64,000 nucleotides of DNA. Origin: Candidatus Freyarchaeum deiterrae. Its GTDB lineage: Archaea > Asgardarchaeota > Jordiarchaeia > Jordiarchaeales > Jordiarchaeaceae. A model generated the notes under the pieces. It had not been told where the DNA came from, did not search any database, and worked only from the letters and a program-made list of their open reading frames with translations. The DNA is taken from positions 2,496,001-2,560,000 of the forward strand of contig CP147778.1 in the NCBI GenBank assembly GCA_037305845.1. Reading direction: 5' to 3'. A program made the position numbers and the translations under genes. Below are positions 24,583-47,039 of this stretch, piece after piece; the stretch's first letter is position 1, and each line of letters begins with the position of its first letter.

Positions 24583-24598
24583 TTCTATCTAACTCCTT

Positions 24599-26216: not shown

Positions 26217-27353
26217 CTATTTTTCGGCTTTCAGTATTTTTCTCATTTCTTCGATTCTTTCGTTTACCATTCTTTTCTGCTCCGAGCCCTCCTCGGACGA
26301 ATCCTCAATTTTAAATTGAGAAATTTTATTCAAAATCTCCTCCGCCCTATCTTTTTCACCCCTTGAAAGAAGGTAATCTAAGTAAATATTTAGGGCAACC
26401 AATAGATGCACTCTGGTATACCATCTCTCAAAGATTTGAATCGCCTTCTCAAAAGCCTCAACAACTCTCTGATCATTTTTTAACATAATATTCGAAACTC
26501 CTATGTGAAAGAGAGTGATAGCTTCTCCGGGTTGGCTGCCTTCCTCCCTCGAAATCGTAAAAGCTTTGTTGAACTGTTCAAGAGCCTCCCCCACTTTTCC
26601 TAATTTAAGAAGAACGGTTCCTACTCTTATACGGCAAAGCGGCTCCTCTACCCCATCATGTATTTCTTCTTTGATTTTCGCCGCTTCGAAATATGATTCA
26701 AGAGCCTCATCCAGTCTCCCCAGTCTCTCATGTATGACTCCGATTTCCCATAAACAAACACCTTTGGTTTTAGTGTCCTCTAATTCTTCTGAAAGTCGAA
26801 GAGCTTCCTGATATTTTTTGTAGGCTTTCTCATATCTCTGCATACCGAACAAAATGTCTCCCATTCTAACAAGAACCTCTAATACACCATCCTTTTCTAC
26901 ATTCTGAATAGCTTGGTAGGCCTGTTCAGAATGCTTCAAAGCCTTCTCCAAATCATCCATCAACCATAAGATTGTACTTATGTGAAAATGAACAGAACCC
27001 AAATTCAGCAAGTCCCCAAGCTCCCCGTAAATAGCCGCAGCCTCCGAGTAACACTTTACAGCATCATCCCCCCTCTCTTTGCTCCACATTAGACGCCCCA
27101 TTCTCGTCAGGCAATCACCCTCTGATGCCTTATCACCTTTTTCTCTGCTCAACTCCAGAATAAGGTTTAGAACCCTTTCCGCTGCATCGTGATGGTAAAG
27201 CTTCGTGCACTGATTAGCCACATTCAGCATGAACCTAGAAATGGACTCCCATTCCCTACCCTTCCCTTTCATAACGTCTATGATATCCTGAGGTTCAGCT
27301 CCTCGCGAAATCAGACTGGCTACACCGTAAACACTATTAATCAAACTTAGCAT
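26217..27353 (-). CDS. tetratricopeptide repeat protein
   Basis: ~40-aa TPR-like repeats (G..L..IG.IH..LG.LDEAL..Y..A..I). Confidence 0.85.
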   Translation of the reverse strand: MLSLINSVYGVASLISRGAEPQDIIDVMKGKGREWESISRFMLNVANQCTKLYHHDAAERVLNLILELSREKGDKASEGDCLTRMGRLMWSKERGDDAVKCYSEAAAIYGELGDLLNLGSVHFHISTILWLMDDLEKALKHSEQAYQAIQNVEKDGVLEVLVRMGDILFGMQRYEKAYKKYQEALRLSEELEDTKTKGVCLWEIGVIHERLGRLDEALESYFEAAKIKEEIHDGVEEPLCRIRVGTVLLKLGKVGEALEQFNKAFTISREEGSQPGEAITLFHIGVSNIMLKNDQRVVEAFEKAIQIFERWYTRVHLLVALNIYLDYLLSRGEKDRAEEILNKISQFKIEDSSEEGSEQKRMVNERIEEMRKILKAEK

Positions 27354-28677: not shown

Positions 28678-29459
28678 TTTTCACCAACCTTCCTTAATTT
28701 TTCCTGAAGTTCTGAATCAACAGAACTTATTCCTCCATTTGTAATCTGGTAGTAGACCCTACCACTCAGGTCACGGTAATGGCTGATAATTTCCGCCTCC
28801 ATGACTGGCTTCACAGGAAGCCCTGAAAGATGTAGTGTTATCTGGCAAAACTTGTTCAAACCCCCACCGGCTGCAGGAACCGTTTTACCCTCTTCTCCGT
28901 CTTCTACCTTAGAAACCACCTGGTTCAGTACAAGTACTGCTATGTCTCGCCTCCTCCTGCATAAACCCAGCATTTCAGGCAACTGTTTCTCCACAACATC
29001 TCGGTATCGGGAAAAACTAGTTTCAGGAGAGAGCCCCTCGCGGTACTGGGAGGCAATCGTGTCTACCACTATAAGTCTAGTTCTATTCGAGACATAAGCA
29101 TCCAGAACGCTGATTATCTCCGTTTGTTCGTCCAAACTCTTAGGAACAATTAGCGTTAATCTCTCCAGCGAATTCTCATCTTGGAAGAGTTGAGAGAACC
29201 TTTGGAAAGAGAACCTGTTATCACAGTCGATGTAAAGTGTTTGATAGCCTTCCTCGGATAGGTGGCCCGCCGCCTGCATGGCTATCGTAGTCTTACCCGT
29301 GGCAGCCTCCCCGTAGATGTGGGTAATTATCCCGGTTGGTATACCTCCTCCAATTAAATCGTCTATTGGACTATGCGTTCTGACACAAGACACTTCATAT
29401 TCACCCCTAAAGGTAAGTGAATTCAACACCACCACTTCTCCTAACCAGCATTCCCTCAC
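28653..29459 (-). CDS. RadB-like RecA-family ATPase
   Basis: LIGGGIPTG.ITHIYGEAATGKTT, LYID, LIVVDTIASQYR, VLVLNQV; no N-terminal HhH. Confidence 0.85.
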   Translation of the reverse strand: MRECWLGEVVVLNSLTFRGEYEVSCVRTHSPIDDLIGGGIPTGIITHIYGEAATGKTTIAMQAAGHLSEEGYQTLYIDCDNRFSFQRFSQLFQDENSLERLTLIVPKSLDEQTEIISVLDAYVSNRTRLIVVDTIASQYREGLSPETSFSRYRDVVEKQLPEMLGLCRRRRDIAVLVLNQVVSKVEDGEEGKTVPAAGGGLNKFCQITLHLSGLPVKPVMEAEIISHYRDLSGRVYYQITNGGISSVDSELQEKLRKVGEKCLKKSII

Positions 29460-29826
29460 TCTCCATGTAATCCAACCTCTTGAGCACCCAATCTTTAGCT
29501 AATCCTATTTTTTCAGCGTTTCTTACTATGTCTTGAACTGGAATCACTTTACTTTCCCGAAGGCTCTGGATAACGCTCTCCAATTTCTCGGTCTTGGTAT
29601 CCATTCCCAATGCATTGTACCTCTCCCCCATCTTCTCAGCCTGCCTCCTCTGAACAAGTTTCGCCCCTGTTTTCCAAGAGTCGACGATATCCCCATGTAA
29701 CCGCTGCGGGTTCAATTTCTCCCCGCATCTCGGGCAGGAAGGCTTCTTGCTGAGGGCGGCTGCAAAGTATTGTTTACATGACGGGCACTCTGCCACCATG
29801 TACTCCCTTTTTCCCATATTTCTCAA
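29407..29826 (-). CDS. zinc-ribbon + winged-helix protein (DUF1922-like)
   Basis: CPSC...CPRCG followed by wHTH-like RLDYMESEGML. Confidence 0.65.
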   Translation of the reverse strand: MRNMGKREYMVAECPSCKQYFAAALSKKPSCPRCGEKLNPQRLHGDIVDSWKTGAKLVQRRQAEKMGERYNALGMDTKTEKLESVIQSLRESKVIPVQDIVRNAEKIGLAKDWVLKRLDYMESEGMLVRRSGGVEFTYL

Positions 29827-32024
29827 CTCCAGGTTTCGAGGTCTTTCTCTTTTCTACGATTCTTAATGCGTTCCTCCAAACTATTTCCCACCCTAGTCGC
29901 GGTTTTCGCCCCCTCCATATTCGCTATCTCCGTGACACAGTGTATCATCCAGTTTAGAGTATCAATGACCGATTCTAGGTCTCCCTGAGGAATCGCATAG
30001 AGAGAGCTAACCTGCCTGATACTCTTACCCTTAAGATAATCCAAAACCGCCACCGACATAAATTGAGGCTGCGGTCTACCATACTCCGACTCCACCGCGC
30101 TTAGAACCAAATTCAATAAACCAAGTTCATCATCAACGTTACCGTGAATCATGCTTCGAATTAGTATACCAGTAGCTGGCTTGAGATAGAGCCTTGTAAC
30201 CTGTTTCCCAAACCCTGTGGCAGTAAAAGTGTTCATTGTGGTTTCAGCAACTAATCCATTATCCCTCAGCTTTTTCAGCACATTCTCAGCGTTAAGGCAG
30301 CGTGACACTAAGCCCTTGTAGACTGGATAATTCCGCTCCACAACCTGGGCCAGCTTAACCAGATGCCTGCACAATCCTTCCCGATTTTCTCCCTGATAAG
30401 AACAAGTGCAGAGAGGACCTTGCTCCTCATGAAAACTGCAAACATTGACAACGGGATCCGTAACAGTAGCCTCAACTCTCTTAGAGAGTAATTGTAATCT
30501 CAAATCCTCGTCACGAATTCTCTCAGCGCCACTCAATTCACATGTTTCAGCAAGGCATTTCACAGAGTCAGATATGTTTGCCGAGCCCAACCTAACCAGC
30601 CTCTCAAGGCTTGGTTGTGAATTATTAGATTTCTCCTTCCTCCACCAAAAAGTTTTTTCAAAAAAGTTCAAGATATCCTTTTCATTCGCCGCCCCGCTCT
30701 CAAATATTCTGAGAAGGGTTTGCTCCTCAAGATTCTGAGGTGAACCGATGGAACTTTCCACGGGATTGTACCGAGGCACTAATTCCCCATCCCTGACATC
30801 AAAGTATTTCTCCAGAACCATAAAACGGTCCGAATCAGAAGAGCAGAGTACTACACCATAGCCCACGCTGTCAAACTCCGGTCTACCCGCTCTCCCCAAT
30901 ATCTGATGAAACTGATTCGCATTAATCCCATCAATCTCAAACTCACCAGTAGCCATCTCTACGCGATTAAACACTTGAAAATCCCTTAGAATCACTAACC
31001 GGGCAGGAGTGTCAATACCCGCAGACAGAGTAGTGGTGCAGCATACAACCTTGAGAAAACCGTTTCGAAATGCGTCCTCCACCAATTCCCTAGAACCATG
31101 ATTCAAACCCGCATGGTGAAAACCCACACCCTGCCTCATCAACTCAATCAAACGTTTAGAATAATTCTTACCCTCAACGAACCTAGCTGAGAGCGTCTCC
31201 CTCTCATCACCAGATAACTGAGGCTCAACCGACTTAACCAATTTACGAGCCAGACTCTCCGCGTCCCTCCTATGCGCAACAAAAACAAGAGCCTGACCGC
31301 CATTCTGAACTGTTGAGGAAACCAATTTCCTTATAGCCCCCAGTTTATCAGCCTCCACCAAGATATAGTTTTTTAAAGGCACGGGTCTGGTGTCTGACTC
31401 GATTAACTTTAAATTCAACCAATCCGCGAACTCACCAGCATTGGCAATGGTTGCACTCAATCCAATGAGCTGCACCCGCAGCTTCTCCCTTATTCTAATA
31501 AGTGCACTCTCCAGCCTCCCCCCTCTCTCGCCCTCACCCATAGCGTGTATCTCGTCCACCACAATAACCCTTATATCGTAGAGCCAATCGGGATTCAAAC
31601 GCAGAAGTGAATCAAACCTCTCAATTGTTGTGATCAGTATATTCGCTTCCTCCAAAATATCGGGAGTATAATGGAAATCGCCGGTGGATATCCTAATCTT
31701 CAAATTCAGGCTGCGGTACTTTCTCAGGAATATACCAAATTTCTCCCGGGCGAGAGCTTTCAGGGGAACCATGTAAACCGCCTTCCCGCCTTCCAGAACC
31801 CATTTCAAAATAGCAAGCTCTCCCACCAGGGTTTTACCACTAGCTGACGGAGAACAAACCAGAAGATCAGCGCCCTCGAATAATCCACCCTGAATTGCAA
31901 GTATTTGAACGGCGCGCAAATAGTTTATCCCCTGCTGTTCCAGAATCTCCCGGATTTGGGCAGGCATCTTCTCCTCCAAGTTCAAGAAGGTTCCCAGACT
32001 CTTTGGACCATCCACCGTCAGCAT
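29823..32024 (-). CDS. Ski2/Hel308-like SF2 helicase with inserted SWIM zinc finger
   Basis: SPSASGKT, PLKALA, VDEIH, LSAT, RPVPL, FHHAGL, TTTLSAG, QILGRAGRP; CTCSY..GLCRH SWIM motif. Confidence 0.88.
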   Translation of the reverse strand: MLTVDGPKSLGTFLNLEEKMPAQIREILEQQGINYLRAVQILAIQGGLFEGADLLVCSPSASGKTLVGELAILKWVLEGGKAVYMVPLKALAREKFGIFLRKYRSLNLKIRISTGDFHYTPDILEEANILITTIERFDSLLRLNPDWLYDIRVIVVDEIHAMGEGERGGRLESALIRIREKLRVQLIGLSATIANAGEFADWLNLKLIESDTRPVPLKNYILVEADKLGAIRKLVSSTVQNGGQALVFVAHRRDAESLARKLVKSVEPQLSGDERETLSARFVEGKNYSKRLIELMRQGVGFHHAGLNHGSRELVEDAFRNGFLKVVCCTTTLSAGIDTPARLVILRDFQVFNRVEMATGEFEIDGINANQFHQILGRAGRPEFDSVGYGVVLCSSDSDRFMVLEKYFDVRDGELVPRYNPVESSIGSPQNLEEQTLLRIFESGAANEKDILNFFEKTFWWRKEKSNNSQPSLERLVRLGSANISDSVKCLAETCELSGAERIRDEDLRLQLLSKRVEATVTDPVVNVCSFHEEQGPLCTCSYQGENREGLCRHLVKLAQVVERNYPVYKGLVSRCLNAENVLKKLRDNGLVAETTMNTFTATGFGKQVTRLYLKPATGILIRSMIHGNVDDELGLLNLVLSAVESEYGRPQPQFMSVAVLDYLKGKSIRQVSSLYAIPQGDLESVIDTLNWMIHCVTEIANMEGAKTATRVGNSLEERIKNRRKEKDLETWS

Positions 32025-32029
32025 TCCCC

Positions 32030-33928
32030 CTACTCACCTAAAAAATCATTCCAACTATCGAGTGATTCTTCTGTTTTGGTTGTTTCAGGTTTGTTCGACC
32101 TTTTTGCACGATAATTTTCCATAATCAGTTTCTTAAGCTGCTGAGGTTCATAGTCAATTTTGCTACTTATTCCTCCGTCTCGTGAAACAATTATCTGAGC
32201 CTTACCATTAACAACATGCTCATAGGTTTCAAGAGGCACATCGGGATATTCCCTCTTAAGACTCTCAACAAAACTCGCCACCTCAGGGCTCTGGGTAACG
32301 ACCAAAATAGCAGAGTACCCGTTTCCACTTCCAGAATCAAAGAGCCTCCTCAACTCATTCTTAATACCATCATCAGTACACATCGTCTCAATAACGGAAT
32401 CACAATTGGTTACTTCAGCCTCGGTTTCAACCACTCGACCACTTTTTGGAACAAGGGGCTCAGCATACAACTTTTCAGGCTCCTCGATTACAGACTTCCT
32501 TTTCCCAGCCTTAGACTTCACCCTAATTCCACTCTCTTTCGCCCTCTTAGAGCTCTTCTTCTCAGTTCGCGGAGCAGATACAGTATTGAAACTACGCGCA
32601 TCTTTCTTAGACAAATCTTTCCGATTCCTTACTGCAACCCTTTCAACAGAGTCCGCTTCAAAAGTAGCAGTGGCTGACACCGAAGATTGTAGGTCAGTAA
32701 GAAGTTTCTGAGCATTTTCAAATAATCTCGAAACATCCGCTTCACCCAGCTTCTGAGGAGTGTTTATTTCTAAGAATTGCTGAAACCCTTTCAGATTCAA
32801 TCCAGTCTTTTCACAAACAAATTCCGCAACTTGTTGCAGAGACCCAAACGATGCTTTCCCAGTTATTTTCACGTAAATTTCCTTTAACCCAGAACTCACC
32901 GCCCCTTTCAAGTGATAGGTACAGTTATCCCAGTCACCCTCAGCATACGATTTCTGTGCTAAATCCCATAGTCCCTCTCTTCTCTGGGCGAAAAATTTGC
33001 TATTGTTTCCTCCCTCTGTTAATAGGGGCTCAACATATTCCTCAACCTCCAACACCTTTGGAGCTTCCTCATCAGTAACGGGTTGAGAAACAGAGCTAAG
33101 CCTAAGCCTAGTGAGTTGTTTTGGAGATTCCGGGACTGTTTCGGATTTCCTTGAAATGGTTTGAGGGGGTATATCTCTTGCTGAATCTTGCACTGCGGTT
33201 AGCTCTTCCCTCAAGAGTTTTTTAAAATTGGCGACTCCCAATTCGTGTATAGCAAGTGATGCGGTAATGGTTGCTACAACGAGAACGGAGTCCAAGGTAA
33301 GCAGCGCTTGGAAAGACGCGGTGGTTTCGCTGAGAAATATTAACGGAACGAGCAGGGCTATAAGAGCCACGGTCAGGATTAACCCTTTTCTCGCACGTGA
33401 GTAGGCTTTCTGTAAAACCTCCGCCTTATTAGGTTTAAAAATTCTGTTGGCTTTCTTCAAAACATAGTTCCGCCTGCTATGCAGCAAAGATGGCAAATCA
33501 GATAGGGAAACTATCTCAACCGAGTCAACCTTGGAATCCCCCTCCTGGCGAGAACCGCTCACCAGGATTTTATCTGCTACAATAATTATTTGCTTACCCA
33601 TGTAATAGGGGGCGTTCACACCAAATACCTTTTTTAGCTCTATGCCGCTTGGAGCATTCGGACCATTGACAAATTGATTAAGCAAAAAGCCAGAAAATCT
33701 AGACAGTGTACGTCTATCTTCTCTAATTTTCTCCATAGAAGTAGCTCTGTACACGACAGCATCAAGGACACTGTAACCCTTACTTTCATATATCTTCCAG
33801 GCCACACGCACAGGAATCTTCTGATAAGACTCTACATCATATCCGTTGTCGGAAAAAATACGCGAAGCCTCACCCTTGCGGGGAGGCTCATCTCCTATTT
33901 GCTTCGTTTTTATTTCCTCCATACACAC
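32030..33928 (-). CDS. two-TM membrane protein with several soluble domains
   Basis: Two hydrophobic helices aa ~183-230; a HEPN-like helix pair AQKSYAEGDWDNCTYHLKGAV; basic linker. Confidence 0.7.
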   Translation of the reverse strand: MCMEEIKTKQIGDEPPRKGEASRIFSDNGYDVESYQKIPVRVAWKIYESKGYSVLDAVVYRATSMEKIREDRRTLSRFSGFLLNQFVNGPNAPSGIELKKVFGVNAPYYMGKQIIIVADKILVSGSRQEGDSKVDSVEIVSLSDLPSLLHSRRNYVLKKANRIFKPNKAEVLQKAYSRARKGLILTVALIALLVPLIFLSETTASFQALLTLDSVLVVATITASLAIHELGVANFKKLLREELTAVQDSARDIPPQTISRKSETVPESPKQLTRLRLSSVSQPVTDEEAPKVLEVEEYVEPLLTEGGNNSKFFAQRREGLWDLAQKSYAEGDWDNCTYHLKGAVSSGLKEIYVKITGKASFGSLQQVAEFVCEKTGLNLKGFQQFLEINTPQKLGEADVSRLFENAQKLLTDLQSSVSATATFEADSVERVAVRNRKDLSKKDARSFNTVSAPRTEKKSSKRAKESGIRVKSKAGKRKSVIEEPEKLYAEPLVPKSGRVVETEAEVTNCDSVIETMCTDDGIKNELRRLFDSGSGNGYSAILVVTQSPEVASFVESLKREYPDVPLETYEHVVNGKAQIIVSRDGGISSKIDYEPQQLKKLIMENYRAKRSNKPETTKTEESLDSWNDFLGE

Positions 33929-33939
33929 CTTTCATCAAT

Positions 33940-34209
33940 TTACATAGGCCATCCACCCGATGGTGGAGGCAGAAAGGAACTTTTTTTACCTTTAACCCTT
34001 TTTTCCGAATCACCCTTCGGTTCTTCTAGCGATAGCTGATCGTCAGAACGCTTTCTTTTCAAAGTCAGCCCTAGTCTCCTTGCATGTTTCAATACAGTTA
34101 CCTCCGATACCCCAAGTTTTTCAGCGATCTCTCTCAACGTCAATCCTCGGCTGTGAAGCTGCTTCAGATCATCATCAGTAAATTTTCTACTCACCGTCAT
34201 AGGCCGCAC
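33940..34209 (-). CDS. small helix-turn-helix protein, first gene of the left operon
   Basis: GLTLREIAEKLGVSEVTVLKH classic HTH. Confidence 0.85.
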   Translation of the reverse strand: MRPMTVSRKFTDDDLKQLHSRGLTLREIAEKLGVSEVTVLKHARRLGLTLKRKRSDDQLSLEEPKGDSEKRVKGKKSSFLPPPSGGWPM

Positions 34210-34232
34210 CTAAGAAAGTGTTAAGTTTCAAA

Positions 34233-34252
34233 AAGTCTTTATAAAGACTTAC
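34233..34252 (-). promoter_or_regulatory. left-arm promoter: TATA-containing 18-bp palindrome aagtctttataaagactt
   Basis: Perfect palindrome 34233-34250; minus strand reads gtaagtctttataaag, identical to 34780-34795 on plus. Confidence 0.7.
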
Positions 34253-34446
34253 CTCCTTTTACGAAGAGTTCTTTTTTCCAGCTTTTGGTCTTCATTAGAA
34301 CTCCAATAATAATTCAAAAAAATATTATCGCTCTTTTTTTTGTATTAGGTCTTATAATGTTGTATTTTCTTTATCAGAGTATTATAAAGTCCTATTTTTC
34401 ATCCAAAAAAATTGCCAAACAAGTTACATATACCTCTCATTGTAAA

Positions 34447-34481
34447 AAATGTGTAAAAATCGCCCAAAAAATTACACAAAA
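34447..34481. promoter_or_regulatory. inverted-repeat box TGTAA-N15-TTACA (copy 1)
   Basis: aaatgtgtaa-aaatcgcccaaaaaa-ttacacaaaa. Confidence 0.6.
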
Positions 34482-34550
34482 CCTGTTGGGGTGTCAATAT
34501 TATTAATTTATTAATTCCCTATTTTGGTTTCTCCAGTATTCGTACAACAG

Positions 34551-34594
34551 AAATATGTAATTTTTGACCATTTTTTTACATATTTTTTGCAAAC
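34551..34594. promoter_or_regulatory. inverted-repeat box AAATATGTAA-N15-TTACATATTT (copy 2)
   Basis: Perfect 10-bp arms, 15-nt spacer; 34576-34594 is the exact reverse complement of 47274-47292. Confidence 0.7.
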
Positions 34595-34779
34595 GATAGT
34601 TCCGTAATGGATTCTCCATCTTTTCACTTTAGAAAAAAAGAATCTCATAAGACTCTAAAATGAAAACTAAAGAGTAAAAAACGGTATAAATTAAAAAAAG
34701 AGAAAAGATATGCCAAAAATAATTGAAAAAGTATTCATAAACCTCCAAATCAATCAAAAAAGCATTCGCAAAAGTAAGC

Positions 34780-34795
34780 GTAAGTCTTTATAAAG
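34780..34795 (+). promoter_or_regulatory. right-arm promoter (gtaagtctttataaag)
   Basis: 16/16 match to left-arm promoter; TTTATAAA TATA box. Confidence 0.7.
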
Positions 34796-34820
34796 GCAAA
34801 ACTGAATCTAGCATCCTTTA

Positions 34821-34895
34821 GTGCGGCGCAAAACATCATTGTAACCTCTCTATTATGCGACACCTGTTACATACAAATGAATTCGAGCGCCGCAC
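34821..34895 (+). other. GC-clamped hairpin in the 5' leader of the radA-paralog operon
   Basis: gtgcggcgc/gcgccgcac 9-bp stem with inner tcatt/aatga and tgtaac/gttaca stems, starting ~25 nt after the TATA box. Confidence 0.5.
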
Positions 34896-34940
34896 AACAA
34901 TAATCGCTAATCGTAAGAAAAAGGGATATGGTGAGAATGA

Positions 34941-35222
34941 ATGCCAGAAGTTTATTGTCAGGTTTTAAACCGGAATGTTGATGGAGGTTATTGTGCCTTC
35001 ATTTGTGAACTTCCAGAAACCGAGAAAAAAATCTTTTACAACCCAGTCAGAGGAATATACGCCGAATGCGACTTTTGCGAGGACACCCCAAAACCGGAAC
35101 CAGTCCGTAAAACTATCTCCACAGTTATAAAGAAGTCTGAACTGGAAAATTCCGAAGATACGCTGAGAATTCCTCAATCAGTGATTCGCAAAGTAATCAC
35201 CGTTTTGGAGGGGGACAAATAA
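34941..35222 (+). CDS. small Cys-containing hypothetical protein
   Basis: ggtga SD; C..CAFIC..CDFC; stop overlaps radA start (TAATG). Confidence 0.65.
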   Translation: MPEVYCQVLNRNVDGGYCAFICELPETEKKIFYNPVRGIYAECDFCEDTPKPEPVRKTISTVIKKSELENSEDTLRIPQSVIRKVITVLEGDK

Positions 35223-36289
35223 TGGATTTGAATAACATTAAGGGTGTGGGGCCCGAGAAATCCAAGAAGCTTATGAACGCGGGTTACAGCACGGTGGAGA
35301 GTATAGCCTTCTCCTCATCCAGAGATCTCTCCATGGATTCCGGTATACCCGAGGAAACAGCCAGACAAATCATTGCTTCCGCCAAGATAATTCTTCGCTC
35401 TAAAGAAAACACGAAAGGCGGAAAACTGGTGGAGATTCTCTCCGGTAAAGACGCTAAAAAAATTCTAAATAGTATGGAACATATTACCACCGGTCTGAAA
35501 GGACTCGACAAGATTCTAGGAGGAGGAGTAGAGACCTGTGCGGTTACTGAGTTCTACGGACCCGCAAAAGCTGGAAAAACACAAATCTGCCACCAACTCT
35601 GCGTCACAGTCCAGCTCCCCAAAGAAAAGGGCGGCTTAGAAGCCCCAGCCATATACATAGACACCGAGAGAACGGTGAAATACGACCACATCAAAAGCAT
35701 AGCCGAGAGATTCGGTCTAGATCCAGACTTGGCAAGCGACAACGTGTTCTACGCCTACGCCATGAACAGTGAAGCCCTCTTCGACATGGTTCACAAGAGT
35801 CTAGATGAAGTAGTTCAAAACCGAGGAATTAAACTCGTAATCGTGGACTGCCTAACCGGACACTTCCGTGCAGAATACTGCGGAAGGGAGAGCCTGCCCG
35901 CAAGGCAGCAGAAAATTAATAGAGTTATCCACGACCTTCTGAGAATCGCCGTCTCCCACGACCTAGCAGTGGTAGTAACAAACCAGGTTCACTCACAACC
36001 CGACCTGTACGGAAAGAGTGAAAATCCCATAGGGGGACACACCGTGGCTCACGGGGTCACTTTCAGGCTGGGATTGAGCACAAGGAAACACAACATGAGA
36101 ATAGCAACCGTGGTTGATGCTCCAGCGCTGCCCCCAGACGAGACTTACTTCGCGATAACCTCCAAGGGACTAATCGACATAACCGCCAAGAATCTGAGCT
36201 CCAAGGAACCTATAGAATTCTCTGATGGAAAAGAGATAGAAGAAAAAGAAGACGAGAAAGTGGAGGAAGAGGAAGCAGTCACGGATTAA
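35222..36289 (+). CDS. radA: RadA/Rad51-family recombinase (divergent paralog)
   Basis: N-terminal HhH (IKGVGP), LDKILGGGVET, EFYGPAKAGKTQ, YIDTE, IVDCLTGHFRAEY.GR..L..RQQ, TNQV, PIGGH. Confidence 0.88.
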   Translation: MDLNNIKGVGPEKSKKLMNAGYSTVESIAFSSSRDLSMDSGIPEETARQIIASAKIILRSKENTKGGKLVEILSGKDAKKILNSMEHITTGLKGLDKILGGGVETCAVTEFYGPAKAGKTQICHQLCVTVQLPKEKGGLEAPAIYIDTERTVKYDHIKSIAERFGLDPDLASDNVFYAYAMNSEALFDMVHKSLDEVVQNRGIKLVIVDCLTGHFRAEYCGRESLPARQQKINRVIHDLLRIAVSHDLAVVVTNQVHSQPDLYGKSENPIGGHTVAHGVTFRLGLSTRKHNMRIATVVDAPALPPDETYFAITSKGLIDITAKNLSSKEPIEFSDGKEIEEKEDEKVEEEEAVTD

Positions 36290-36307
36290 TTTAGCGAGGG
36301 ATGCACT

Positions 36308-38974
36308 ATGTGGAAACGGGGAGCAACTTTGGTTCTGGTTTCTCTCATACTTGTACTGATGATTTCAGTTCTTTTTGCAGCTGTTAGTTCATTCCCCGCT
36401 TTCCCCGTTCAACCTAGTGCAGCGGCTCAGTCCAGTTATGTTCCAAAATCTGTGGTTAGTGCTGCTTACCTCACCAATCAATCAACCGTCCAAAAATGGG
36501 AGAACTACTTCGCGAGTAATTCCAGCCAGACTAATCTGCAAAACGCAGTCGGGTTTCTTTCGGGCCTAGGAACCCGATATCCATCAAGTCCGACGTGCAA
36601 CAATTCGGCGGACTATATTTACACAACTCTTTCTTCATATGGTTACACACCCCTAAGAGATTACTTCACGGTTATGTGGCAGGGCAACCCGTACATTACC
36701 CAAAATATATACTGCATCAAGCCTTCTTCTTCGTCATCGGACATAATTCTTTTAGCCTGTAACTACGACTCAATAAGGGCTTCCAGAATAGGGACAACAA
36801 TTTACGATCTTCAGAACACTAGTTGTCCGGGTGCTGTAGACGACGCGACTGGTGTGGCGGTGCTTCTTGAAACCGCTAGATTAATCGCCAATGTAAGTCT
36901 TGATAAGACTCTGGTTTTCGTTTTTCTGAGTGGAGAGGAAGGAAACAGCACAACGGAACACTGGTTCGGCTCAGAACAACTGGTAAATCAAGGATACAGC
37001 CTATTCACCACACAGCTCTCAAACATAAAACGAGTAGTATACTTGGATACTCTCGGGGAGTCCCCGTACGGGGCACCGTATGAAAATATTACGCTTTTCT
37101 CAACTCTCGCAGTATTACCACAAAAAAGTTCCCTTATTGGTGCGGCGTCTGACCTAGGTATTAACGTCATCTCTGCGAATAATTCGAGGGTTTCATCAAT
37201 TTCAGATGCTCAAAACCAGTTTTGTACGGAATGGATGTTACAATCAGTCCTGCCCACGATAACTATCTCACAGAATGACTGGAATCTCGCCACGAGCAAA
37301 AGATTAACTGAGCAGGACACGGCCTCCATAGTTGATTACACCTTTGTTGATAACGTCACAGAGGTCGTTACAGGAGCACTGGTACGGGAGTTCTTCGTCC
37401 TTCCGCCAAGCTCTCCCAGCTACGTAGACGGTTGGAAGAAGCTCGCAAACCTAAACCAATACGGGGTTAACCTATTTGAGGTGGACTATGTAGAATACCT
37501 AGCCCACCCGAATTCCGATGTTGTAATAATAGGACCTAGGCTACACTTTACACCCTCCGAGCTCCAGCAGCTAATTGGTATCGGCAAGCCTCTCATCTGC
37601 ACAGGTGGAAATGGTGTAGAGTTGCTTAACAGTCTAGGTGCCCAGGTTACTGGCATTTCCTCTAATACTGATTATGTTTCTCTAACCAGAATGGATTTGT
37701 TCTATCATCCTGTATGGGAAAACGTGGAGGAGAACACCACGGTAACAATCAATCAGGGGCAGTCCACCCTCATTACCGCCGGAAACAACTTCTTCTCATT
37801 CTTAGGATTTAATGGAACTTGCTGGATGGGATTCTACTATGGTAACCAATCACTAAAGTATGTCTTCTATGTGGGAAGAGACAACCCTTCGAATCTAAGC
37901 GATAAAGGGAAACAAATTCTGAGCAACCTGATATTCTGGAGTGCTCAACAGCAGGAAAATGTTCTACAGATTCAGCCCACAAAAATTGTAGCTGGAGAAA
38001 ATACCAACCTCACCATGGCCATAAGGAGCGCTCTGAGCTGGAACGTCATACAGGCTGACACATTGAATCTAACCATCACCCAAAACGGGGGATTAGTATA
38101 CCAAGATTCCATTCCCACGTCGAACGGCTACTTTAGTGTTAATCTTGATCTAAACCTTGGAGAGTATATCTTTACGGTGTCAAATGGCACAGTTTCTGCC
38201 ACAAGGATAATACAGGTATTAATGCCGTTTATAGTTCAGGTTTATTCTTCTCCATTATTGGTTCAGAATGAGTATGTTCTATTGGTTCTAAGAATTGATA
38301 GTCTATCATCATCCCAGCAAAATCTCGGTGTATTTATCCCAGAACTTCAGGTGTTTAATCAGGTTAATCTACCCTCAAACCAATCGGTGACGGTCCTAGT
38401 TCCCGCGATTTATACTCCTTCATCAATTTACGACCAAGGCTTTCACCTATTCACGGTTCTGGTTCAAGGTTCTTACGGTAGTGGTTCGGTTTTCCCCATG
38501 TGGATATCTCTAGATGCGAGTAGTCTGATTCTCGGGTACATTCTACCCCTAATTGCTATTTTGGCAATCAGCTTCCTTACTTACAGAAAGATATACGTGG
38601 TTAAACTTCCCGAGAAGATAAAGCTTAGGGAGACTAGGAGGAGAAACAGGAGAAGCTACTTTAACACTTTTGTCTTAGACTCGGAAATAATTGGAGTACT
38701 AAGAGAACGCCTCAAACAGAAAGGATTCCGAGAGAAGGCAAAAAACCGCTTCTACAACTCCGAAATGATAATCGAAATTGAAAATAAAGGGGATAAATCA
38801 TCCATTAGAGTCTTCTCTTCAATCCCATTCTCATCTAAAAAAGATTTCTTCAAACTAACCGAACGAATCAAAATAAACAGGGTCACCATCGCTAAAAACC
38901 AAGAAGCAAAACCTGAACCGGAGAAGGGCACAATATCCAAATTCAAAGGAGGGCTTAAGGATGATAGGTATTGA
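36308..38974 (+). CDS. secreted M28-peptidase-like multidomain surface protein with C-terminal TM anchor
   Basis: Signal peptide; ACNYDS, PGAVDDATGVAVLLE, SGEEG, YLDTLG; many NxS/T sites; TM aa ~738-760 plus basic cytoplasmic domain. Confidence 0.8.
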   Translation: MWKRGATLVLVSLILVLMISVLFAAVSSFPAFPVQPSAAAQSSYVPKSVVSAAYLTNQSTVQKWENYFASNSSQTNLQNAVGFLSGLGTRYPSSPTCNNSADYIYTTLSSYGYTPLRDYFTVMWQGNPYITQNIYCIKPSSSSSDIILLACNYDSIRASRIGTTIYDLQNTSCPGAVDDATGVAVLLETARLIANVSLDKTLVFVFLSGEEGNSTTEHWFGSEQLVNQGYSLFTTQLSNIKRVVYLDTLGESPYGAPYENITLFSTLAVLPQKSSLIGAASDLGINVISANNSRVSSISDAQNQFCTEWMLQSVLPTITISQNDWNLATSKRLTEQDTASIVDYTFVDNVTEVVTGALVREFFVLPPSSPSYVDGWKKLANLNQYGVNLFEVDYVEYLAHPNSDVVIIGPRLHFTPSELQQLIGIGKPLICTGGNGVELLNSLGAQVTGISSNTDYVSLTRMDLFYHPVWENVEENTTVTINQGQSTLITAGNNFFSFLGFNGTCWMGFYYGNQSLKYVFYVGRDNPSNLSDKGKQILSNLIFWSAQQQENVLQIQPTKIVAGENTNLTMAIRSALSWNVIQADTLNLTITQNGGLVYQDSIPTSNGYFSVNLDLNLGEYIFTVSNGTVSATRIIQVLMPFIVQVYSSPLLVQNEYVLLVLRIDSLSSSQQNLGVFIPELQVFNQVNLPSNQSVTVLVPAIYTPSSIYDQGFHLFTVLVQGSYGSGSVFPMWISLDASSLILGYILPLIAILAISFLTYRKIYVVKLPEKIKLRETRRRNRRSYFNTFVLDSEIIGVLRERLKQKGFREKAKNRFYNSEMIIEIENKGDKSSIRVFSSIPFSSKKDFFKLTERIKINRVTIAKNQEAKPEPEKGTISKFKGGLKDDRY

Positions 38975-39413
38975 ACAATTACTAGGTTGGATGGTTAACT
39001 CATTAATTTACGATGGGATTATACTCTTCATCGCATTTTTCATCGTGTTTCTGAGTCTAAAAGTAGCCATAACATTTCTAAGAGCAAACGAATCCCAAAC
39101 CGTTCCCCTGATTCCACCAAAGCTACCAGTGTCGGAAAAAGCTAATCCCTACGTCCAGCTAGCTGAAGCCCTAGAGAAGGGCGACCAAGGAGCATTATTA
39201 TGGCTGATGAGCCAAAACACAACCAAGAGCAGGATTCAAAAAACGCTAAACTCAGCTTCGGTGGACTTGTTTTTGGGAATAGCTTCCCTGTTAACAGTTT
39301 CCAGTGCTTATATCAAGATTAACGCTCTACCAGTGTCGGACTGGATAGTAATCCTAATGATTATAGCAGCCCTCATTCTTGTGGGCGTCTCATACCGGAG
39401 GGCGAAAGGTTGA
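38961..39413 (+). CDS. small membrane protein (~3 TM)
   Basis: Three hydrophobic segments; overlaps upstream gene. Confidence 0.7.
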   Translation: MIGIEQLLGWMVNSLIYDGIILFIAFFIVFLSLKVAITFLRANESQTVPLIPPKLPVSEKANPYVQLAEALEKGDQGALLWLMSQNTTKSRIQKTLNSASVDLFLGIASLLTVSSAYIKINALPVSDWIVILMIIAALILVGVSYRRAKG

Positions 39414-39529: not shown

Positions 39530-40378
39530 GTGTCTGCTGAAAATGAAGAAACAGAAAAAGAAAAAGAAGAACCCAAGGAACCATATATCAAGTGGAAAGA
39601 TAGAAACGCCAAACTTTTCAGCCTCAAGAACGTAGCCAAGTTCATGGTTGTAGCAGTCGTCAGCCTACTATCCTACTTTGCTTCAACAGCATATCTCTCA
39701 TATCCGTACTGGATAATAACGACCGCTCTATGCACCTACATCTCGATGTGCTCAGTGAATTCCAAGTTTGCTTCGCCATTTCTTAGATTGCTTAGTCGCG
39801 GAAAGTGGCCTAACAAAGACAAGTTCTCACTGGTCGATCCGTTACAGGACATGACCTTCTTCTTCATGGGAGGCGAGGATTCCGTTCTAATAATGCGTGA
39901 TAGCTACAAGCTTGCCGCCTACGCTATGATGAAGGTGGAGGAAATCCCCCTGAGCATAAGAGGAAGCTTCAACTACTTCTTCCGAACACTCTATCTCCAA
40001 AAAATACCAGTAACATACTTCGTGGAAAGCAGCCCGGTCTCAGAGAGAACGGTAAGGTTCCTACCAAACCTTGAGGAAGACAGCCGCCGATCCATCGCTA
40101 AGAGGGACAAGTCTCGCAGAAAAACTTACCTCTGGGGAGGCGGAGGCATCTGGACAACACGCATAGTCCTCGGAACCAAAAAGGAGACAATAGCACCAGT
40201 ACGCCTCGACAAATCAATTGGAAAACTTGTCGAAGAGGTCAAACAGAACGCTTTCACACTAGCCACAGCGTTTGAAAACTCTTACCCCCACTGCAAAATC
40301 GAACCCCTATTAGGCGAATCCCTGCTACAGGCTACAAAGGCTATGCTAACTGGCGGAGGGGTGTCCAATTTTTTCTAA
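39530..40378 (+). CDS. two-TM membrane protein; 0-frame half of a probable frameshift fusion with the downstream ATPase-like ORF
   Basis: ggagg SD + GTG; TM aa ~38-76; ends at T TTT TTC TAA. Confidence 0.75.
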   Translation: MSAENEETEKEKEEPKEPYIKWKDRNAKLFSLKNVAKFMVVAVVSLLSYFASTAYLSYPYWIITTALCTYISMCSVNSKFASPFLRLLSRGKWPNKDKFSLVDPLQDMTFFFMGGEDSVLIMRDSYKLAAYAMMKVEEIPLSIRGSFNYFFRTLYLQKIPVTYFVESSPVSERTVRFLPNLEEDSRRSIAKRDKSRRKTYLWGGGGIWTTRIVLGTKKETIAPVRLDKSIGKLVEEVKQNAFTLATAFENSYPHCKIEPLLGESLLQATKAMLTGGGVSNFF

Positions 40379-40402
40379 CCGGGTTGGAGTCGTCTCCAAC
40401 TT
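40355..40402 (+). other. putative programmed -1 ribosomal frameshift cassette
   Basis: GGAGG (40355-59), slippery T_TTT_TTC (40369-75), 5-nt spacer, hairpin gggttggag-tcgt-ctccaactt (40381-402); -1 frame open into the ATPase ORF. Confidence 0.65.
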
Positions 40403-41946
40403 TCGTGGACATAGCCACCTTCATGACCAAAGGCTTACCGGTCAAACCCGCCGCGGAATTCGTCAGCCCCTCAGTGGAATACGATTTTAAGCTGGGCAAG
40501 GTGCTTGAAACTGAGGTGTACAAGGAAGACGTAGACGTAGGACTAAAAATCGAACACCTAACGCGAGGAATCATGGTCGCTGGAGGAAGCCACAAGGAAC
40601 GCACCGCCACAAACCTAAGCATCATTTTCGAAGCTTCCAAATTTGCCTGGAACTATCTAATAGTGGACACCAAGAAAGAGTTCCGAAAACTGGTGAACAT
40701 GAACCCCGAAACAAGAGTGTACACCAGCAAAAGCATCTGCATAAACCCACTGGACCCCGAAGGCTCAAACGTTTCCGAGTACATTTCCCTGTTACTCAGA
40801 CTATTTCAGGTACTATGGGACCTCACCAACAGACAGAGTATCGGTCTGAACGAAGCCCTGAGAAGCATATACGAGAAACAGGACGGAGACGAAGCCCCCA
40901 CACTCGAGGACCTGAGAAATGCCCTACTTAATCAGAGCTCATCGAAGCTGCGGACACCCCAGGAGAGAGGCGAAACAGAGGAACTGATACGCGGCGTAAC
41001 GGGTCTGGTTCTCTCCGAAGAATCCCCCACAATAAACGGGCGCTCCACAGCACCCTTCGGAGAACTCACGACTAATCCCACAGTTATAGAAATTTCCAAA
41101 AAGGATCAGCTTTTCTCAAGCTTCTTCAAAGGACTAATGATAATCAAAGCCCTAGCCACGGAAAAAGGCAGATACTCCATATTTCTGGACGACGCAGAGG
41201 AGGTTTTCAAAAACGTAAGGTTCGGCTGGAAAACACAGCAAGTCTACTTCATGGAATCTCTAACCGCCTGGGTGGAAAGCCTCAAAGAAATGAAAGTGGG
41301 ATTACACATTTCAACAAGTCTACCACGATTAATATACGACCCCATCACCCCATCGATAGAAACACGAATATTCCATAAACTCGTTTCAAGCGATGACATA
41401 GAGGTAGGAGGAGATCTCATGGGACTGGATGAAAACGCCCCCGGAATACACTCCCTCAAGAGAGAACGACTCTACCAGAAAACCTACTTCAAATACCTGA
41501 AAGAGGGAGAAGCCATGTTCCACAGACCAGACCTACCCACAGGATTCCCCATAATCCTACAATACCCCGCAGGAGCAACCTCAAAGGCACCATCAGACCA
41601 AGAGATAAAAACCAGGATGGAAGAGCTCTACCCTCCACAGAACGTAAACCCGATGGAGAGTTTACCGTCCACGATACTCGAGAGAGACTTGAAAAACGAA
41701 ACTGAGAACGCCACAAAAATACTTAGTCTGCTCCACGAATACCCCCAACTATCACTAACAAATATTATACAGAGCCTAAAAACAGAAGTCGACTCGGAGA
41801 AGCTAAACTATCTAGTAGAGAAGCTCAAGGATCAGGAATACTTGAAGGAAACTCTGGAAATCTGGAAATCAAGAACCAAAAGAGTATACTCCCTTACGCT
41901 GAAGGGAGAACAGGCGCTAAAAGAATACACGGAATCCAAACGGTAA
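40384..41946 (+). CDS. HerA/VirB4/FtsK-superfamily ATPase-like protein with degenerate motifs and C-terminal wHTH
   Basis: LTRGIMVAGGSHKERT (Walker A position), LIVDTKKEF, INPLD, PTLEDL, IFLDDAE (Walker B position), LKEGEA, VYSLTLKG wing. Confidence 0.72.
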   Translation: MESSPTFVDIATFMTKGLPVKPAAEFVSPSVEYDFKLGKVLETEVYKEDVDVGLKIEHLTRGIMVAGGSHKERTATNLSIIFEASKFAWNYLIVDTKKEFRKLVNMNPETRVYTSKSICINPLDPEGSNVSEYISLLLRLFQVLWDLTNRQSIGLNEALRSIYEKQDGDEAPTLEDLRNALLNQSSSKLRTPQERGETEELIRGVTGLVLSEESPTINGRSTAPFGELTTNPTVIEISKKDQLFSSFFKGLMIIKALATEKGRYSIFLDDAEEVFKNVRFGWKTQQVYFMESLTAWVESLKEMKVGLHISTSLPRLIYDPITPSIETRIFHKLVSSDDIEVGGDLMGLDENAPGIHSLKRERLYQKTYFKYLKEGEAMFHRPDLPTGFPIILQYPAGATSKAPSDQEIKTRMEELYPPQNVNPMESLPSTILERDLKNETENATKILSLLHEYPQLSLTNIIQSLKTEVDSEKLNYLVEKLKDQEYLKETLEIWKSRTKRVYSLTLKGEQALKEYTESKR

Positions 41947-43725: not shown

Positions 43726-44646
43726 CTAGAAATCCTCATCCTCCATTTCTTCCTCAGCATCGTCATCCCACTGACTCTCCGGAAAGAGTTTTTCATAATT
43801 TTTCTTCGTTCTTCTTTTCTCGGATTCCGGGAGTTGTCTCGGCTTACTCTCCTCCCTATTTCGGTTTCCACTATTGGGATTGGAATTGTGTTCCTTTCTG
43901 CTTCTTCCTCTGTAGGCTTTCTCCACCTTTGTTAGTCCTGGATTTCCCTCCGCCTTCGAGAGATGCGTTAACCCGGGTGGATTTTCATCAGGATCGTCTG
44001 GATAATCGGGATTAAGATTTGGATTTTGGTTATTGATTATGCCTTGTGTGTTCAGGTATGCTTCGTCTGATTGGTGTCTTGTCTTAAACATCCAGTATAA
44101 CTTTTTAGCTAGTGCGATGCTGATTATTGATGGGATTAAAACCAGTGCCAGTAGTCCAAGAGGGAAAGGTTGCATGATCAGCTGTGGGACCAGATACGTG
44201 TTCTCTGTATAGAGGAAAATTGCAATAATCGTGGTGATTGAGGCTGTGGATACTGGTGCTAGTCTTAAGAGCCATTTTATCTTCCTTTGGGCTAGTAAAA
44301 CTACGGTTGCTGATATCATTGTGGAAGAAAACAGGCTTACCAACTCCTTTTGCATCATGTATACTCCCGCCCAGTCGGGAAGAGCAGAGTAAAACACTAG
44401 GTAGAGGAATGGGAAAAGAATTAAACCAGAAGCGAACCTCCAGTGGTTTATGAAAAATTTAATGGTTGACCATACGAACCAGAATGTTAAGCGTACCTGA
44501 TCTCTTATAATCAAATACACTAGGGTAAGTTTCCCCTTCACGGCGAGGAAACCTAAGCATAAGACATTGATTACAATAATTATTATTACTATGGTCAAAA
44601 CGCTGCTAAGCATGGATGAGAGATTAGAAAAGAAGCTTTCAAACAT
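43726..44646 (-). CDS. polytopic membrane protein (~6 TM) with disordered acidic C-terminal tail
   Basis: Hydrophobic aa 10-180; ggagtga SD; N/P/E/D-rich tail. Confidence 0.75.
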   Translation of the reverse strand: MFESFFSNLSSMLSSVLTIVIIIIVINVLCLGFLAVKGKLTLVYLIIRDQVRLTFWFVWSTIKFFINHWRFASGLILFPFLYLVFYSALPDWAGVYMMQKELVSLFSSTMISATVVLLAQRKIKWLLRLAPVSTASITTIIAIFLYTENTYLVPQLIMQPFPLGLLALVLIPSIISIALAKKLYWMFKTRHQSDEAYLNTQGIINNQNPNLNPDYPDDPDENPPGLTHLSKAEGNPGLTKVEKAYRGRSRKEHNSNPNSGNRNREESKPRQLPESEKRRTKKNYEKLFPESQWDDDAEEEMEDEDF

Positions 44647-44744
44647 CTTATATCACTCCCATTCTTAGTTCTTGAATCAGAATATTTATCGAAATTATAA
44701 TTGTGATTAAAAAAAAAGGAAAATTGAGTTTGGGGATTGTTGCT

Positions 44745-47039
44745 TTAATTCTCTCCATCGTCCCACCCTTCCTCGTTTCCTCCTGTGCCAGATCCGTCGA
44801 GCATCCGATTATTAAGAAATTCGCTTCTGTTTTTCCTAAGCCGCGTGAACAATACTACGCTACCCAGCAATCCGAATCCGGTAACTGCCAGAACGCTAGG
44901 CAGAGTGAAGCCAGAGATGTTAGGGTCTAACAGAGAAAGCCCCGCCAATACGTTTAGTGAAGCACCCCCACCTCCTGAAGATGAAGATGTTACTCTGATT
45001 GAACTGCTTGTGGTAGCGATGGTGTAAGACTGGTTGAAGAACATCAGTATATTGTAATCTCCGGTGTATTGCGGCGTCCATTGGGTTTGGAAACAAGTCA
45101 GGTTACTGATAGTGTACATCCCTGAGAATACGGCGTTATTGTCGAGATCCGTTACCAGAAGAGTTACTGGGTCGTTAAGGTTAGGTGTGAAGCCGAGTGA
45201 ACTGAATTTCGCATTAATCTGGAGACTTCCTCCCAGTGTAATCTGTCCATTATTGGCATTGGTTTCAAGACCTGCTACAAGTTGAGAAGCTGAGAATTCC
45301 AAACCCGTGGTTACAGGGTCTAAGGTTGAGTTACCGGGGAACGTGAAGAATACGCTGTGAATTCCTCTAGTGCTTGGAGCCCACCCCAGAGAGAAAAGGC
45401 TGTCAATTCCCGTGTATATGGAGCAATTCACCATACGACCATCAGGACAGTAAATGGTTACATTTATACCAATGCTGCCCCCAAGAGGCTGTGAATTCAG
45501 AGTTAGGTTTCCCTCAAAGTTCAGGGTGTCCCCCACAGTTATACCGGAATTTGTACCGACAAGATTTACCGATAGCGCTGGTTTGCCTCTGACTGTTACC
45601 TGGGCGGCGGTCCAGTTCTTTGGCTGGCCGTCGTAATTCTTAATCCAGGCTACGATTTCGTATATTCCGATTCCCACGGGAACCCAGTTGTATGCAGCAT
45701 AACCCGAACTGTTGCTGACCTCGGAGTCCAAGAGTGTGTATAAATCAGGGTTGTTAGTGAAAGTTGCTCCTGGATAGGTTATCCGGTTTATTATGCTCAA
45801 GTAGACGACTAATCCTGGAGCGGGGTTACCCCCTGCTGTTACGCAGGCGTTTAGCAGTACCACGCCTCCGCTGAGGTATATGGTGCTGGGTGTGGCGTTG
45901 AATGCTGTTATCTTGTAATCGGTGGGTTGTACGGTGAACGATTCAAGGAAGAATAGTGTCCCATCCGTCACATTTATGGTGTAGCTGGGGCTGGGGATTG
46001 AAGGTATTTGAAATGAGGTGTAAACCGGTCCGCTGCTGCTTGTGACTACTTGGTCGGTGTGCACCGTGGTTTGGTTCCAGTCGATAACCTTCACATTGAG
46101 GTTTACTCCTCCGTAAAAGGTTAGATTTAGATTGTTTCTCGCGGCTATGCTTATGTTAGCTACTTCTGAGGCGTTGTATGAGTAATAATCTGGTTCTATT
46201 TGAATGCTGTAGGGGTTTTTATTCTTAAGCCAGTAGAGTATGTTCATCAGGGTTTGCAGGCAACTATATCCATTGGGGTCTTGGCTAATGGTTGTTATGT
46301 TTTGTAACGCCCAGTGTACCAAGTAGGGGTTTACCGAATAACTACTATAGATGCTCAAGAAGTACTCATTGAATTCTTCCCAGTCCATTGCCAGCGGAAT
46401 CAATTGTGTGGAGTTGGTTAGGGTTAGATTGTCATTGGATAGGGGTAGCTCGAAGTATCTTTGGGATACCTGCCCGTAGAGTTCCTGGGTGGTATAATTC
46501 ACTCGGTTGGGGTACTGGAATACTATGTGGTAGTGGGTGTCCCAGTTGTTGGGGCCGTATGTAATCTCAAGCCAGTGAATCGATGTGACTTTAGTGATTT
46601 TTAGAGGGGTTATCTGGGCTCCGAGATTGTTAAGAAACTCGTACCCGCCATCGCCCACAGCTAGTACTGGTTTACCGATTCCTGCTATGGTTTGAGATTC
46701 AGTCTGGTTCAGTCCTTTACAGGAAGTGTCCAAAATGAGAATATCAAAAGCACTGGCAATGGAAGAATTACTGACCAAGTTTTCTAAATAGACCTGTGTT
46801 AAGGTAAAGCCCTCTGCTTGGAGAGTGTTGTTCCAATCGTTGAAATAGTTGTTGCTACCGTTGGTGATAAAGAGGATGCTCGGCTGATTGGATTTAGAAT
46901 ATGCTGGGTTGTTATTGTTAACTCCTAGGGAAACATAGTTGAGAACAGTTGTTTGCGGTGATGCTGTTGTTAGTAAAGTAAGTTCAGTTAACGATAGTAG
47001 CGTTAAAATTAGAGCTATTATGAGTAATTTTTTCTTCAG
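44745..47039 (-). CDS. large surface glycoprotein (GATase-like domain + Ig-like domains, C-terminal TM); extended to a CTG start
   Basis: Frame is open 87 codons upstream of the track start, giving signal peptide (M)KKKLLIIALILTLLSL after aggagagga SD; Ig-like WxPxxxGxY repeats; TM followed by RLRK. Confidence 0.8.
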   Translation of the reverse strand: MKKKLLIIALILTLLSLTELTLLTTASPQTTVLNYVSLGVNNNNPAYSKSNQPSILFITNGSNNYFNDWNNTLQAEGFTLTQVYLENLVSNSSIASAFDILILDTSCKGLNQTESQTIAGIGKPVLAVGDGGYEFLNNLGAQITPLKITKVTSIHWLEITYGPNNWDTHYHIVFQYPNRVNYTTQELYGQVSQRYFELPLSNDNLTLTNSTQLIPLAMDWEEFNEYFLSIYSSYSVNPYLVHWALQNITTISQDPNGYSCLQTLMNILYWLKNKNPYSIQIEPDYYSYNASEVANISIAARNNLNLTFYGGVNLNVKVIDWNQTTVHTDQVVTSSSGPVYTSFQIPSIPSPSYTINVTDGTLFFLESFTVQPTDYKITAFNATPSTIYLSGGVVLLNACVTAGGNPAPGLVVYLSIINRITYPGATFTNNPDLYTLLDSEVSNSSGYAAYNWVPVGIGIYEIVAWIKNYDGQPKNWTAAQVTVRGKPALSVNLVGTNSGITVGDTLNFEGNLTLNSQPLGGSIGINVTIYCPDGRMVNCSIYTGIDSLFSLGWAPSTRGIHSVFFTFPGNSTLDPVTTGLEFSASQLVAGLETNANNGQITLGGSLQINAKFSSLGFTPNLNDPVTLLVTDLDNNAVFSGMYTISNLTCFQTQWTPQYTGDYNILMFFNQSYTIATTSSSIRVTSSSSGGGGASLNVLAGLSLLDPNISGFTLPSVLAVTGFGLLGSVVLFTRLRKNRSEFLNNRMLDGSGTGGNEEGWDDGEN

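Follow-up and report, generated by a model that had tools for sequence, protein, structure and literature searches.

Two overlapping reading frames in the genome of Candidatus Freyarchaeum deiterrae, called as two genes in databases, raise the question whether they are in fact a single gene with two protein products. They lie in a window of 64,000 nucleotides (contig CP147778.1, positions 2,496,001 to 2,560,000), by which we mean the whole stretch of DNA that was analyzed and to which coordinates refer unless another contig is named. A preceding sequence-only reading had proposed that a −1 frameshift joins the two frames. We consider it very probable that programmed −1 ribosomal frameshifting indeed lets one gene encode both products; evidence at the level of RNA, ribosome profiling or peptides is lacking, and the slip itself is inferred.

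Results

The proposed frameshift cassette

The 0-frame ORF (39530–40378, + strand) ends with AAT TTT TTC TAA, such that the 282-aa short form terminates in VSNFF. Re-reading of the sequence located the individual elements exactly where they had been proposed: a slippery heptamer of the X_XXY_YYZ type, U_UUU_UUC, in 0-frame phase at 40369–40375 (+), the adjoining 0-frame stop codon (40376–40378, +), and a Shine-Dalgarno (SD)-like GGAGG(GGT) at 40355–40362 (+), whose GGAGG portion (40355–40359) ends 9 nt 5' of the shift site. The 3' hairpin, a putative stimulator of 9 bp (seven Watson-Crick and two G-U pairs), was likewise recovered at 40381–40402 (+), with a spacer of 5 nt and a stability of −16.3 kcal/mol. 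The −1 frame stays open between 40276 and 41946, its translation across the junction being F-F-L-T-G-L-E. Translation bore out the two products, as the −1-frame part (40375–41946, +; 523 aa), comprising a HerA/VirB4 ATPase fold and a winged helix, adds to the 282 aa of the short form to give a conceptual fusion of 805 aa, with the junction N-F-F-L-T-G (VSNFFLTG) and the junction peptide GGGVSNFFLTGLESSPTF. Gene callers begin the downstream part at TTG 40384 or later.

Across the genome, 145 pairs of long ORFs overlap in −1 register, and 13 of them carry an in-phase slippery heptamer in the overlap. Among these 13, a strong 3' hairpin was seen only at the 40369 site (next best −9.3), and this genome-wide scan found no second comparable cassette. 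Rfam returned only a chance snoRNA match, and a promoter/terminator scan with bacterial patterns gave nothing at the junction.

Conservation of heptamer and frame

The protein family is present in 161 of 400 genomes of the phylum; a single-protein query recovered close relatives only, the closest orthologs (75–81% identity) residing in genomes titled Ca. Jordarchaeum madagascariense, Jordarchaeia and Freyarchaeota. T_TTT_TTH with an immediate stop codon (TAA in 16, TGA in eight) occupies the same position in 24 loci of the Asgard families f1, f2, f12, f26 and f28, so that the heptamer and frame relationship postulated from one genome are kept across five families. These loci comprise 16 of the Jordarchaeia group, three f12 genomes, four Helarchaeales-like ones (G157, G152, L143, L144; a 68%-identical protein is annotated Helarchaeota), and G009. 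All 16 Jordarchaeia-group assemblies, drawn from NCBI, JGI, ENA and Logan, read N/H/Y-TTT-TTC-stop with the same T6C; in G009 the heptamer is T_TTT_TTA, and in G152 the run is extended to T8. Six different codons (CAT, AAT, TAT, CCT, CGT, GCT) precede the Phe codons, and all of them end in T. On the protein tree, the frameshift lineages are about two or more substitutions per site apart, and the tree did not resolve a single ancestral shift versus multiple origins (backbone support <95). A natural loss of the frameshift is seen in a Helarchaeales-like ortholog (L145:2330–2400), where heptamer and hairpin have disappeared and an own ATG has been gained.

Putative RNA stimulators

Folding of the hairpin at 40381–40402 is more stable than that of dinucleotide shuffles (z −2.5) and of synonymously recoded sequences (z −3.5), and no other in-frame 42-nt window sampled in the downstream ORF is as stable as the hairpin region. 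The downstream 42 nt are likewise the most stable window sampled in the ORFs of f12, G157 and G152, with z values versus synonymous recoding of −4.5 to −5.2 in f12 and G157 and of −2.5 in G152. Hairpins of these other families (f12, Helarchaeales) differ in sequence and register from that at 40381–40402, and the spacing to the heptamer, 5 nt here, is 3–7 nt in the other folded families, as compared with about 5–9 nt for −1 frameshifting of the dnaX/IS type. Within the Jordarchaeia group, conservation of the hairpin is incomplete: it is kept in most sequences (z −1.6 to −3.8 in 9 of 14 tested) but weak in five (G001, G003, G004, G005, L090). No significant hairpin was detected by the synonymous-recoding test in nine fused or in-frame controls or in two −1 loci with own starts. 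In the Helarchaeales stem, four pairs are changed on both sides, a result matched in 19 of 500 shuffles and resting on four rows only; the search for covariation in the Jordarchaeia-group hairpin gave no signal and was uninformative.

The 9-nt spacing between the SD-like element and the heptamer falls within the 9–14 nt known for −1 stimulation (PMC5009743), and pairing of GGAGG with the genome's own anti-SD amounts to −11.5 kcal/mol. The element overlaps Gly codons, the second and third of which are GGA in 14 and 13 of the 16 sequences, with the first varying freely, and GGA accounts for 40% of Gly codons in this genome. Given this overlap and its absence from family f12, the element can be regarded as an optional stimulator at best. 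The five weak-hairpin sequences carry good SD matches (−9.8 to −11), and f12 combines a strong hairpin with no SD. These are hints, anecdotal at this stage, that SD and hairpin are interchangeable as stimulators.

Entry into the −1 frame

L-T-G-L-E is invariant in the 16 close sequences, encoded by synonymously varying codons (four for Thr, two for Gly, 2 + 2 for Leu), and no ATG, GTG or TTG is conserved at the junction among them. G151 lacks any candidate start near the junction. As far as aligned sequences can tell, comparison shows that coding selection acts on the −1 frame before any conserved start codon.

This bears on the possibility that two separate proteins are made by translational coupling, with termination followed by reinitiation at the stop overlap (NTGA/CTAA) or at TTG 40384, aided by GGAGG. 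The −1 register is equivalent to a 4-nt stop/start overlap, which is common in archaea (PMC6728339), and split orthologs having their own starts do exist; true starts are found in G009 (ATGA) and G016 (GTGA/ATGA), a TTG in G152, and an own ATG with SD in G053. The stop-overlapping codon is, however, CTA in 13 of the 16 Jordarchaeia-group loci as well as in G151, G157 and L144, and the nominal TTG, which sits inside the hairpin, is CTG in 5 of the 16. SD-to-start spacing in this genome peaks at 7–10 nt, as opposed to 15 nt from GGAGG to CTA and 24 nt to TTG 40384, the poor spacing of the latter having been recognized in the sequence-only reading. Reinitiation would further leave the invariant T run and the strong start-adjacent hairpin unexplained, and loci with own starts have lost both, G009 excepted. 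In G009, an ATG overlaps the stop and a strong SD lies 12 nt upstream, and for this reason the locus may reinitiate instead. We thus judge reinitiation highly improbable as the general explanation and plausible only for G009 and perhaps G152. Since L-T-G-L-E changes only synonymously, no start is conserved and the SD spacing is wrong, entry into the −1 frame by translation from the 0 frame appears most likely.

The same two products could also arise by programmed transcriptional slippage, in which RNA polymerase would insert an extra U at the T run, and ordinary decoding of the +1 mRNA would yield the long form. A homopolymer is indeed present (T6; T8 in G152), but it is short, and efficient polymerase slippage usually needs about 8–9 A/T. 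The codon phase of the run is invariant, and a hairpin 3' of it at 3–7 nt fits a paused ribosome, but would still be untranscribed while the polymerase is on the run. Although Thermus dnaX and some IS elements do rely on polymerase slippage instead of frameshifting (PMC5009743), we give it here slightly less credence even than reinitiation. An assembly error or a decaying pseudogene, conceivable in that homopolymer indels are common in sequencing and most orthologs are in frame, is practically excluded by conservation, as the identical T6C recurs in 16 separate assemblies and the site in four other families (raw reads not consulted), the downstream ORF is intact, and changes at the junction are synonymous only.

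Proteins encoded by the two frames

Natural in-frame fusions, one of the checks named in the sequence-only reading, do exist: the 805-aa conceptual fusion aligns through the junction, without a large gap, with in-frame orthologs of 750–1010 aa, whose F-Y/H-x-x-G-x-E motif matches F-F-L-T-G-L-E. The architecture consists of two TM helices, a VirB4-like N-terminal domain (NTD), a HerA/VirB4 fold without the Walker A lysine, and a winged helix. The short form had originally been taken for a membrane anchor alone. Two long hydrophobic helices (residues 32–76; 39623–39757, +), evident from the modelled secondary structure and the hydrophobic sequence, support that part, and we infer that they anchor the protein in the membrane and occupy VirB3's position in bacterial systems; in addition, the short form has a VirB4-NTD-like alpha/beta domain. 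Its model (pLDDT 77.5) shows two long helices plus this domain, and the top ten Foldseek rows were all TrwK/VirB4 (best E 1.5e-3). The match to TrwK residues 15–207 (151 residues, Z 5.3, rmsd 4.6) is modest and below several chaperone-like folds; a wide VIA search did not rank VirB4 first for the short form, and Pfam gave no match to it.

The −1-frame domain yielded profile matches to HerA (E 3.7e-8), and the model of a natural fused ortholog matched TrwK/VirB4 (E 2.8e-14) and HerA (E 1.4e-13). The earlier assignment to HerA/VirB4 therefore holds for the fold, with the reservation that the Walker A lysine (GxxGxGKT/S) is missing in all family orthologs examined, though present in two outgroup HerA proteins; ortholog comparison places the degenerate Walker A, GGSHKERT without catalytic lysine, at 40582–40605 (+). 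The domain is homologous to VirB4/HerA by fold, but probably not an active ATPase. The C-terminal winged helix-turn-helix (wHTH; 41716–41934, +) rests on weak Pfam wHTH matches and on PadR/MarR matches in the PDB. A natural 447-aa variant with TM, NTD and wHTH and without the ATPase-fold domain occurs in genome G050 (L142:2004–3347, −).

Gene content and predicted pairing of the short form

Frameshift genomes have one NTD match each. Among the fused loci of family f7 with enough flank, a separate 2-TM + NTD gene lies directly upstream in 16 of 16 (hhalign E 5.5e-6) and its end coincides with that of the short form, and f9 proteins have two tandem TM + NTD modules followed by one ATPase fold. 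In the Helarchaeales-like order, G157 and G152 shift with one copy, and G155 and G158 are fused with a stand-alone paralog elsewhere. No extra short copy was found in the fused G014, G041, G018 and G156, the assemblies of which are incomplete. Covalent fusion is not obligatory, as G053 and G016 (Baldrarchaeia-like), G006, G008 and L145 have two separately started genes. Selection seems to maintain the short product as a subunit. That short and long forms are made at a fixed ratio, as the sequence-only reading had it, can be inferred from these gene-content patterns, without any measurement.

In modelling, the short form was predicted to homodimerize through its NTD via strand 158–169 (score 0.45 vs 0.00 for the best control); among solved homodimers the mark was met in 20 of 30, among single chains in 1 of 23. 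The dimer runs share at least 52% of contacts at a pLDDT of at least 59, and likeness to solved VirB4 dimers may contribute. In the R388 T4SS, VirB4 forms six dimers joined only by their NTDs, one subunit of each building the ring (PMC9259494). By analogy with VirB4outside and VirB4central, we infer that NTD contacts may join a short to a long form. If the short form takes the place of the outer VirB4 subunit, a high shift rate is predicted.

Genomic neighbourhood

Directly upstream lies a gene for a small membrane protein of 150 aa (38961–39413, +), and most split loci have a small hydrophobic gene ahead of the NTD gene; we infer that this protein is a probable partner. RadA (35222–36289, +; Pfam Rad51) and an M28-like surface protein (36308–38974, +; Pfam Peptidase_M28), both of which recur near orthologs, are on the same strand and probably share an operon with the frameshift gene (35222–38974). 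Recurrent around orthologs are RadA, RadB-like, Hel308-like helicase, FEN1-like nuclease and M28-like surface proteins together with small membrane genes.

Window positions 25239–36289 hold a divergent DNA-repair cluster whose families recur beside orthologs across Asgard families, made up of FEN1/XPG-like (25239–26216, −), RadB-like (28653–29459, −) and Hel308-like (29823–32024, −) genes and, on the opposite strand, of RadA. A small Arf/Ras-like GTPase and Roadblock/LC7 pair (MglA/MglB-like; 24004–25183, −) belongs to the same leftward run as the first three of these genes. Two membrane proteins without Pfam match, of 446 aa (27337–28677, −) and 632 aa (32030–33928, −), are conserved in some ortholog neighbourhoods and are possible further parts of the complex; the 446-aa ORF looked by eye like another NTD paralog, which hhalign did not support (prob 0.3). 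At 43726–46778 (−) there is a second pair of surface and membrane proteins, its 677-aa protein clustering with the M28-like protein, and such a pair flanks the ATPase-fold gene in several close relatives.

Elsewhere in the same genome, an 829-aa HerA/DUF87 protein with intact Walker A (GSTKAGKS; C1:1605513–1608002; L139:8514–11003, −) adjoins a 1696-aa unannotated protein and is a candidate for the active partner; the genome has at least five more HerA-like ORFs. In the Baldrarchaeia-like G053 and G016 (L076, L077), the gene is followed by NifH-like (GKGGIGKS) and nitrogenase component-1-like genes, and repeated LWGLFLF-type translations upstream of the cluster in G006 (L079:86–1200) suggest a CRISPR-like repeat array.

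Discussion

Comparison across the family establishes the conserved site, its phase and stop, the hairpins, the homology of the fusion to natural in-frame proteins, and extra NTD copies in many fused lineages. On this basis, we propose that ribosomes would stall with U_UUU_UUC in the P and A sites, held by the 3' hairpin, with probable help from the stop codon next to it and, in some lineages, from SD:anti-SD pairing. A fraction would slip back by one base, either by a tandem tRNA-Phe slip or by a P-site slip at the stop, and continue to the 805-aa protein with its two TM helices, VirB4-like NTD, ATP-site-dead HerA/VirB4 fold and wHTH, with the remaining ribosomes terminating to release the 282-aa TM + NTD form. 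The short:long ratio would thereby be set, perhaps near 1:1 by inference. The resulting complex is inferred to be the membrane scaffold of a Ced-like DNA uptake/recombination system that would need an active ATPase encoded elsewhere.

Several known systems share parts of this arrangement. As in the fs-chlD frameshift of magnesium/cobalt chelatase, known from bacteria and predicted in Methanocaldococcus and Methanococcus (PMC9227772, PMC5009743), a conserved −1 site with 3' structure would deliver the small and large subunit of one complex from one gene, and where lineages lack the shift, the N-terminal part is encoded by a gene of its own (chlI there). Unlike fs-chlD, an AAA+ chelatase with A_AAA_AAR, the present case concerns a membrane VirB4/HerA-like family with U_UUU_UUC, the stop follows the heptamer directly, and tandem duplication constitutes a third solution. 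Heptamer, upstream SD, 3' stem-loop and two N-terminally coincident products recall E. coli dnaX and IS elements (PMC5009743); here, however, the ribosome is archaeal, Phe codons take the place of Lys codons, some lineages lack the SD, and shifting would yield the long product instead of the short one as in dnaX. Saccharolobus solfataricus fucA1 is likewise archaeal and chromosomal and combines a −1 overlap with heptamer and stem-loop (PMC1616953, PMC8211752), but is shifted in two strains only, other Sulfolobales being in frame, whereas the site described here is kept across five Asgard families.

A 2021 review names fucA1 as the only chromosomal −1 frameshift so far demonstrated in Archaea and states that it is not known whether the mechanism serves other genes (PMC8211752). 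Several haloviruses are predicted to use frameshifting, as is chlD in Methanococcales, and the latter prediction rules out calling the Asgard site the first conserved archaeal frameshift (PMC5009743). Our literature search, of incomplete coverage, found no report of this site. The mechanism is of a known kind; new is its domain context, and the protein family is undescribed.

The combination of TM, a VirB4-like NTD, itself a modest structural match, and a HerA/FtsK-type fold, on a chromosome and near recombination genes, is shared with CedD/CedB (TedD/TedB) and VirB3-VirB4 (PMC11868833, PMC11823120, PMC9259494), and the CedD layout of TM, NTD and ATPase fold resembles that of the long form (PMC11868833). 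In contrast to CedD/CedB, the Walker A lysine is lost, a wHTH is added and expression is probably by frameshift; nor was a CedA/VirB6 or pilin homolog identified here (flanking small membrane proteins not compared). A role in Ced-like DNA uptake and recombination, energized by another HerA-family protein, is a serious possibility that we hold at somewhat short of even; it derives from neighbourhood and fold only, and uptake is inferred. Membership of the Ced system is not shown, and there are no genetic, expression or DNA-damage induction data. Still a little more tentatively, an ancient Asgard −1 shift may tune the ratio of full to ATPase-less VirB4-like subunits in an undescribed membrane machine for DNA uptake and recombination, with frameshifting, a separate short gene and tandem duplication as different lineages' routes to two NTDs per ring subunit.

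The site matters because only one −1 slip has been demonstrated in any archaeal gene. It also corrects the annotation: what is entered in databases as two genes has truncated starts (502–522 aa; 481 aa in f12). Nature supplies its own controls in the form of fused genes, split genes, and variants with a strong hairpin and no SD or a weak hairpin and strong SD; together with deep conservation, these provide a ready cassette for asking whether ribosomes of archaea respond to bacterial-type SD and stem-loop stimulators, a question that here concerns the lineage closest to eukaryotes. Beyond this, the shift points to the subunit design of an uncharacterised Asgard VirB4-like membrane complex encoded beside RadA, Hel308 and FEN1-like genes.
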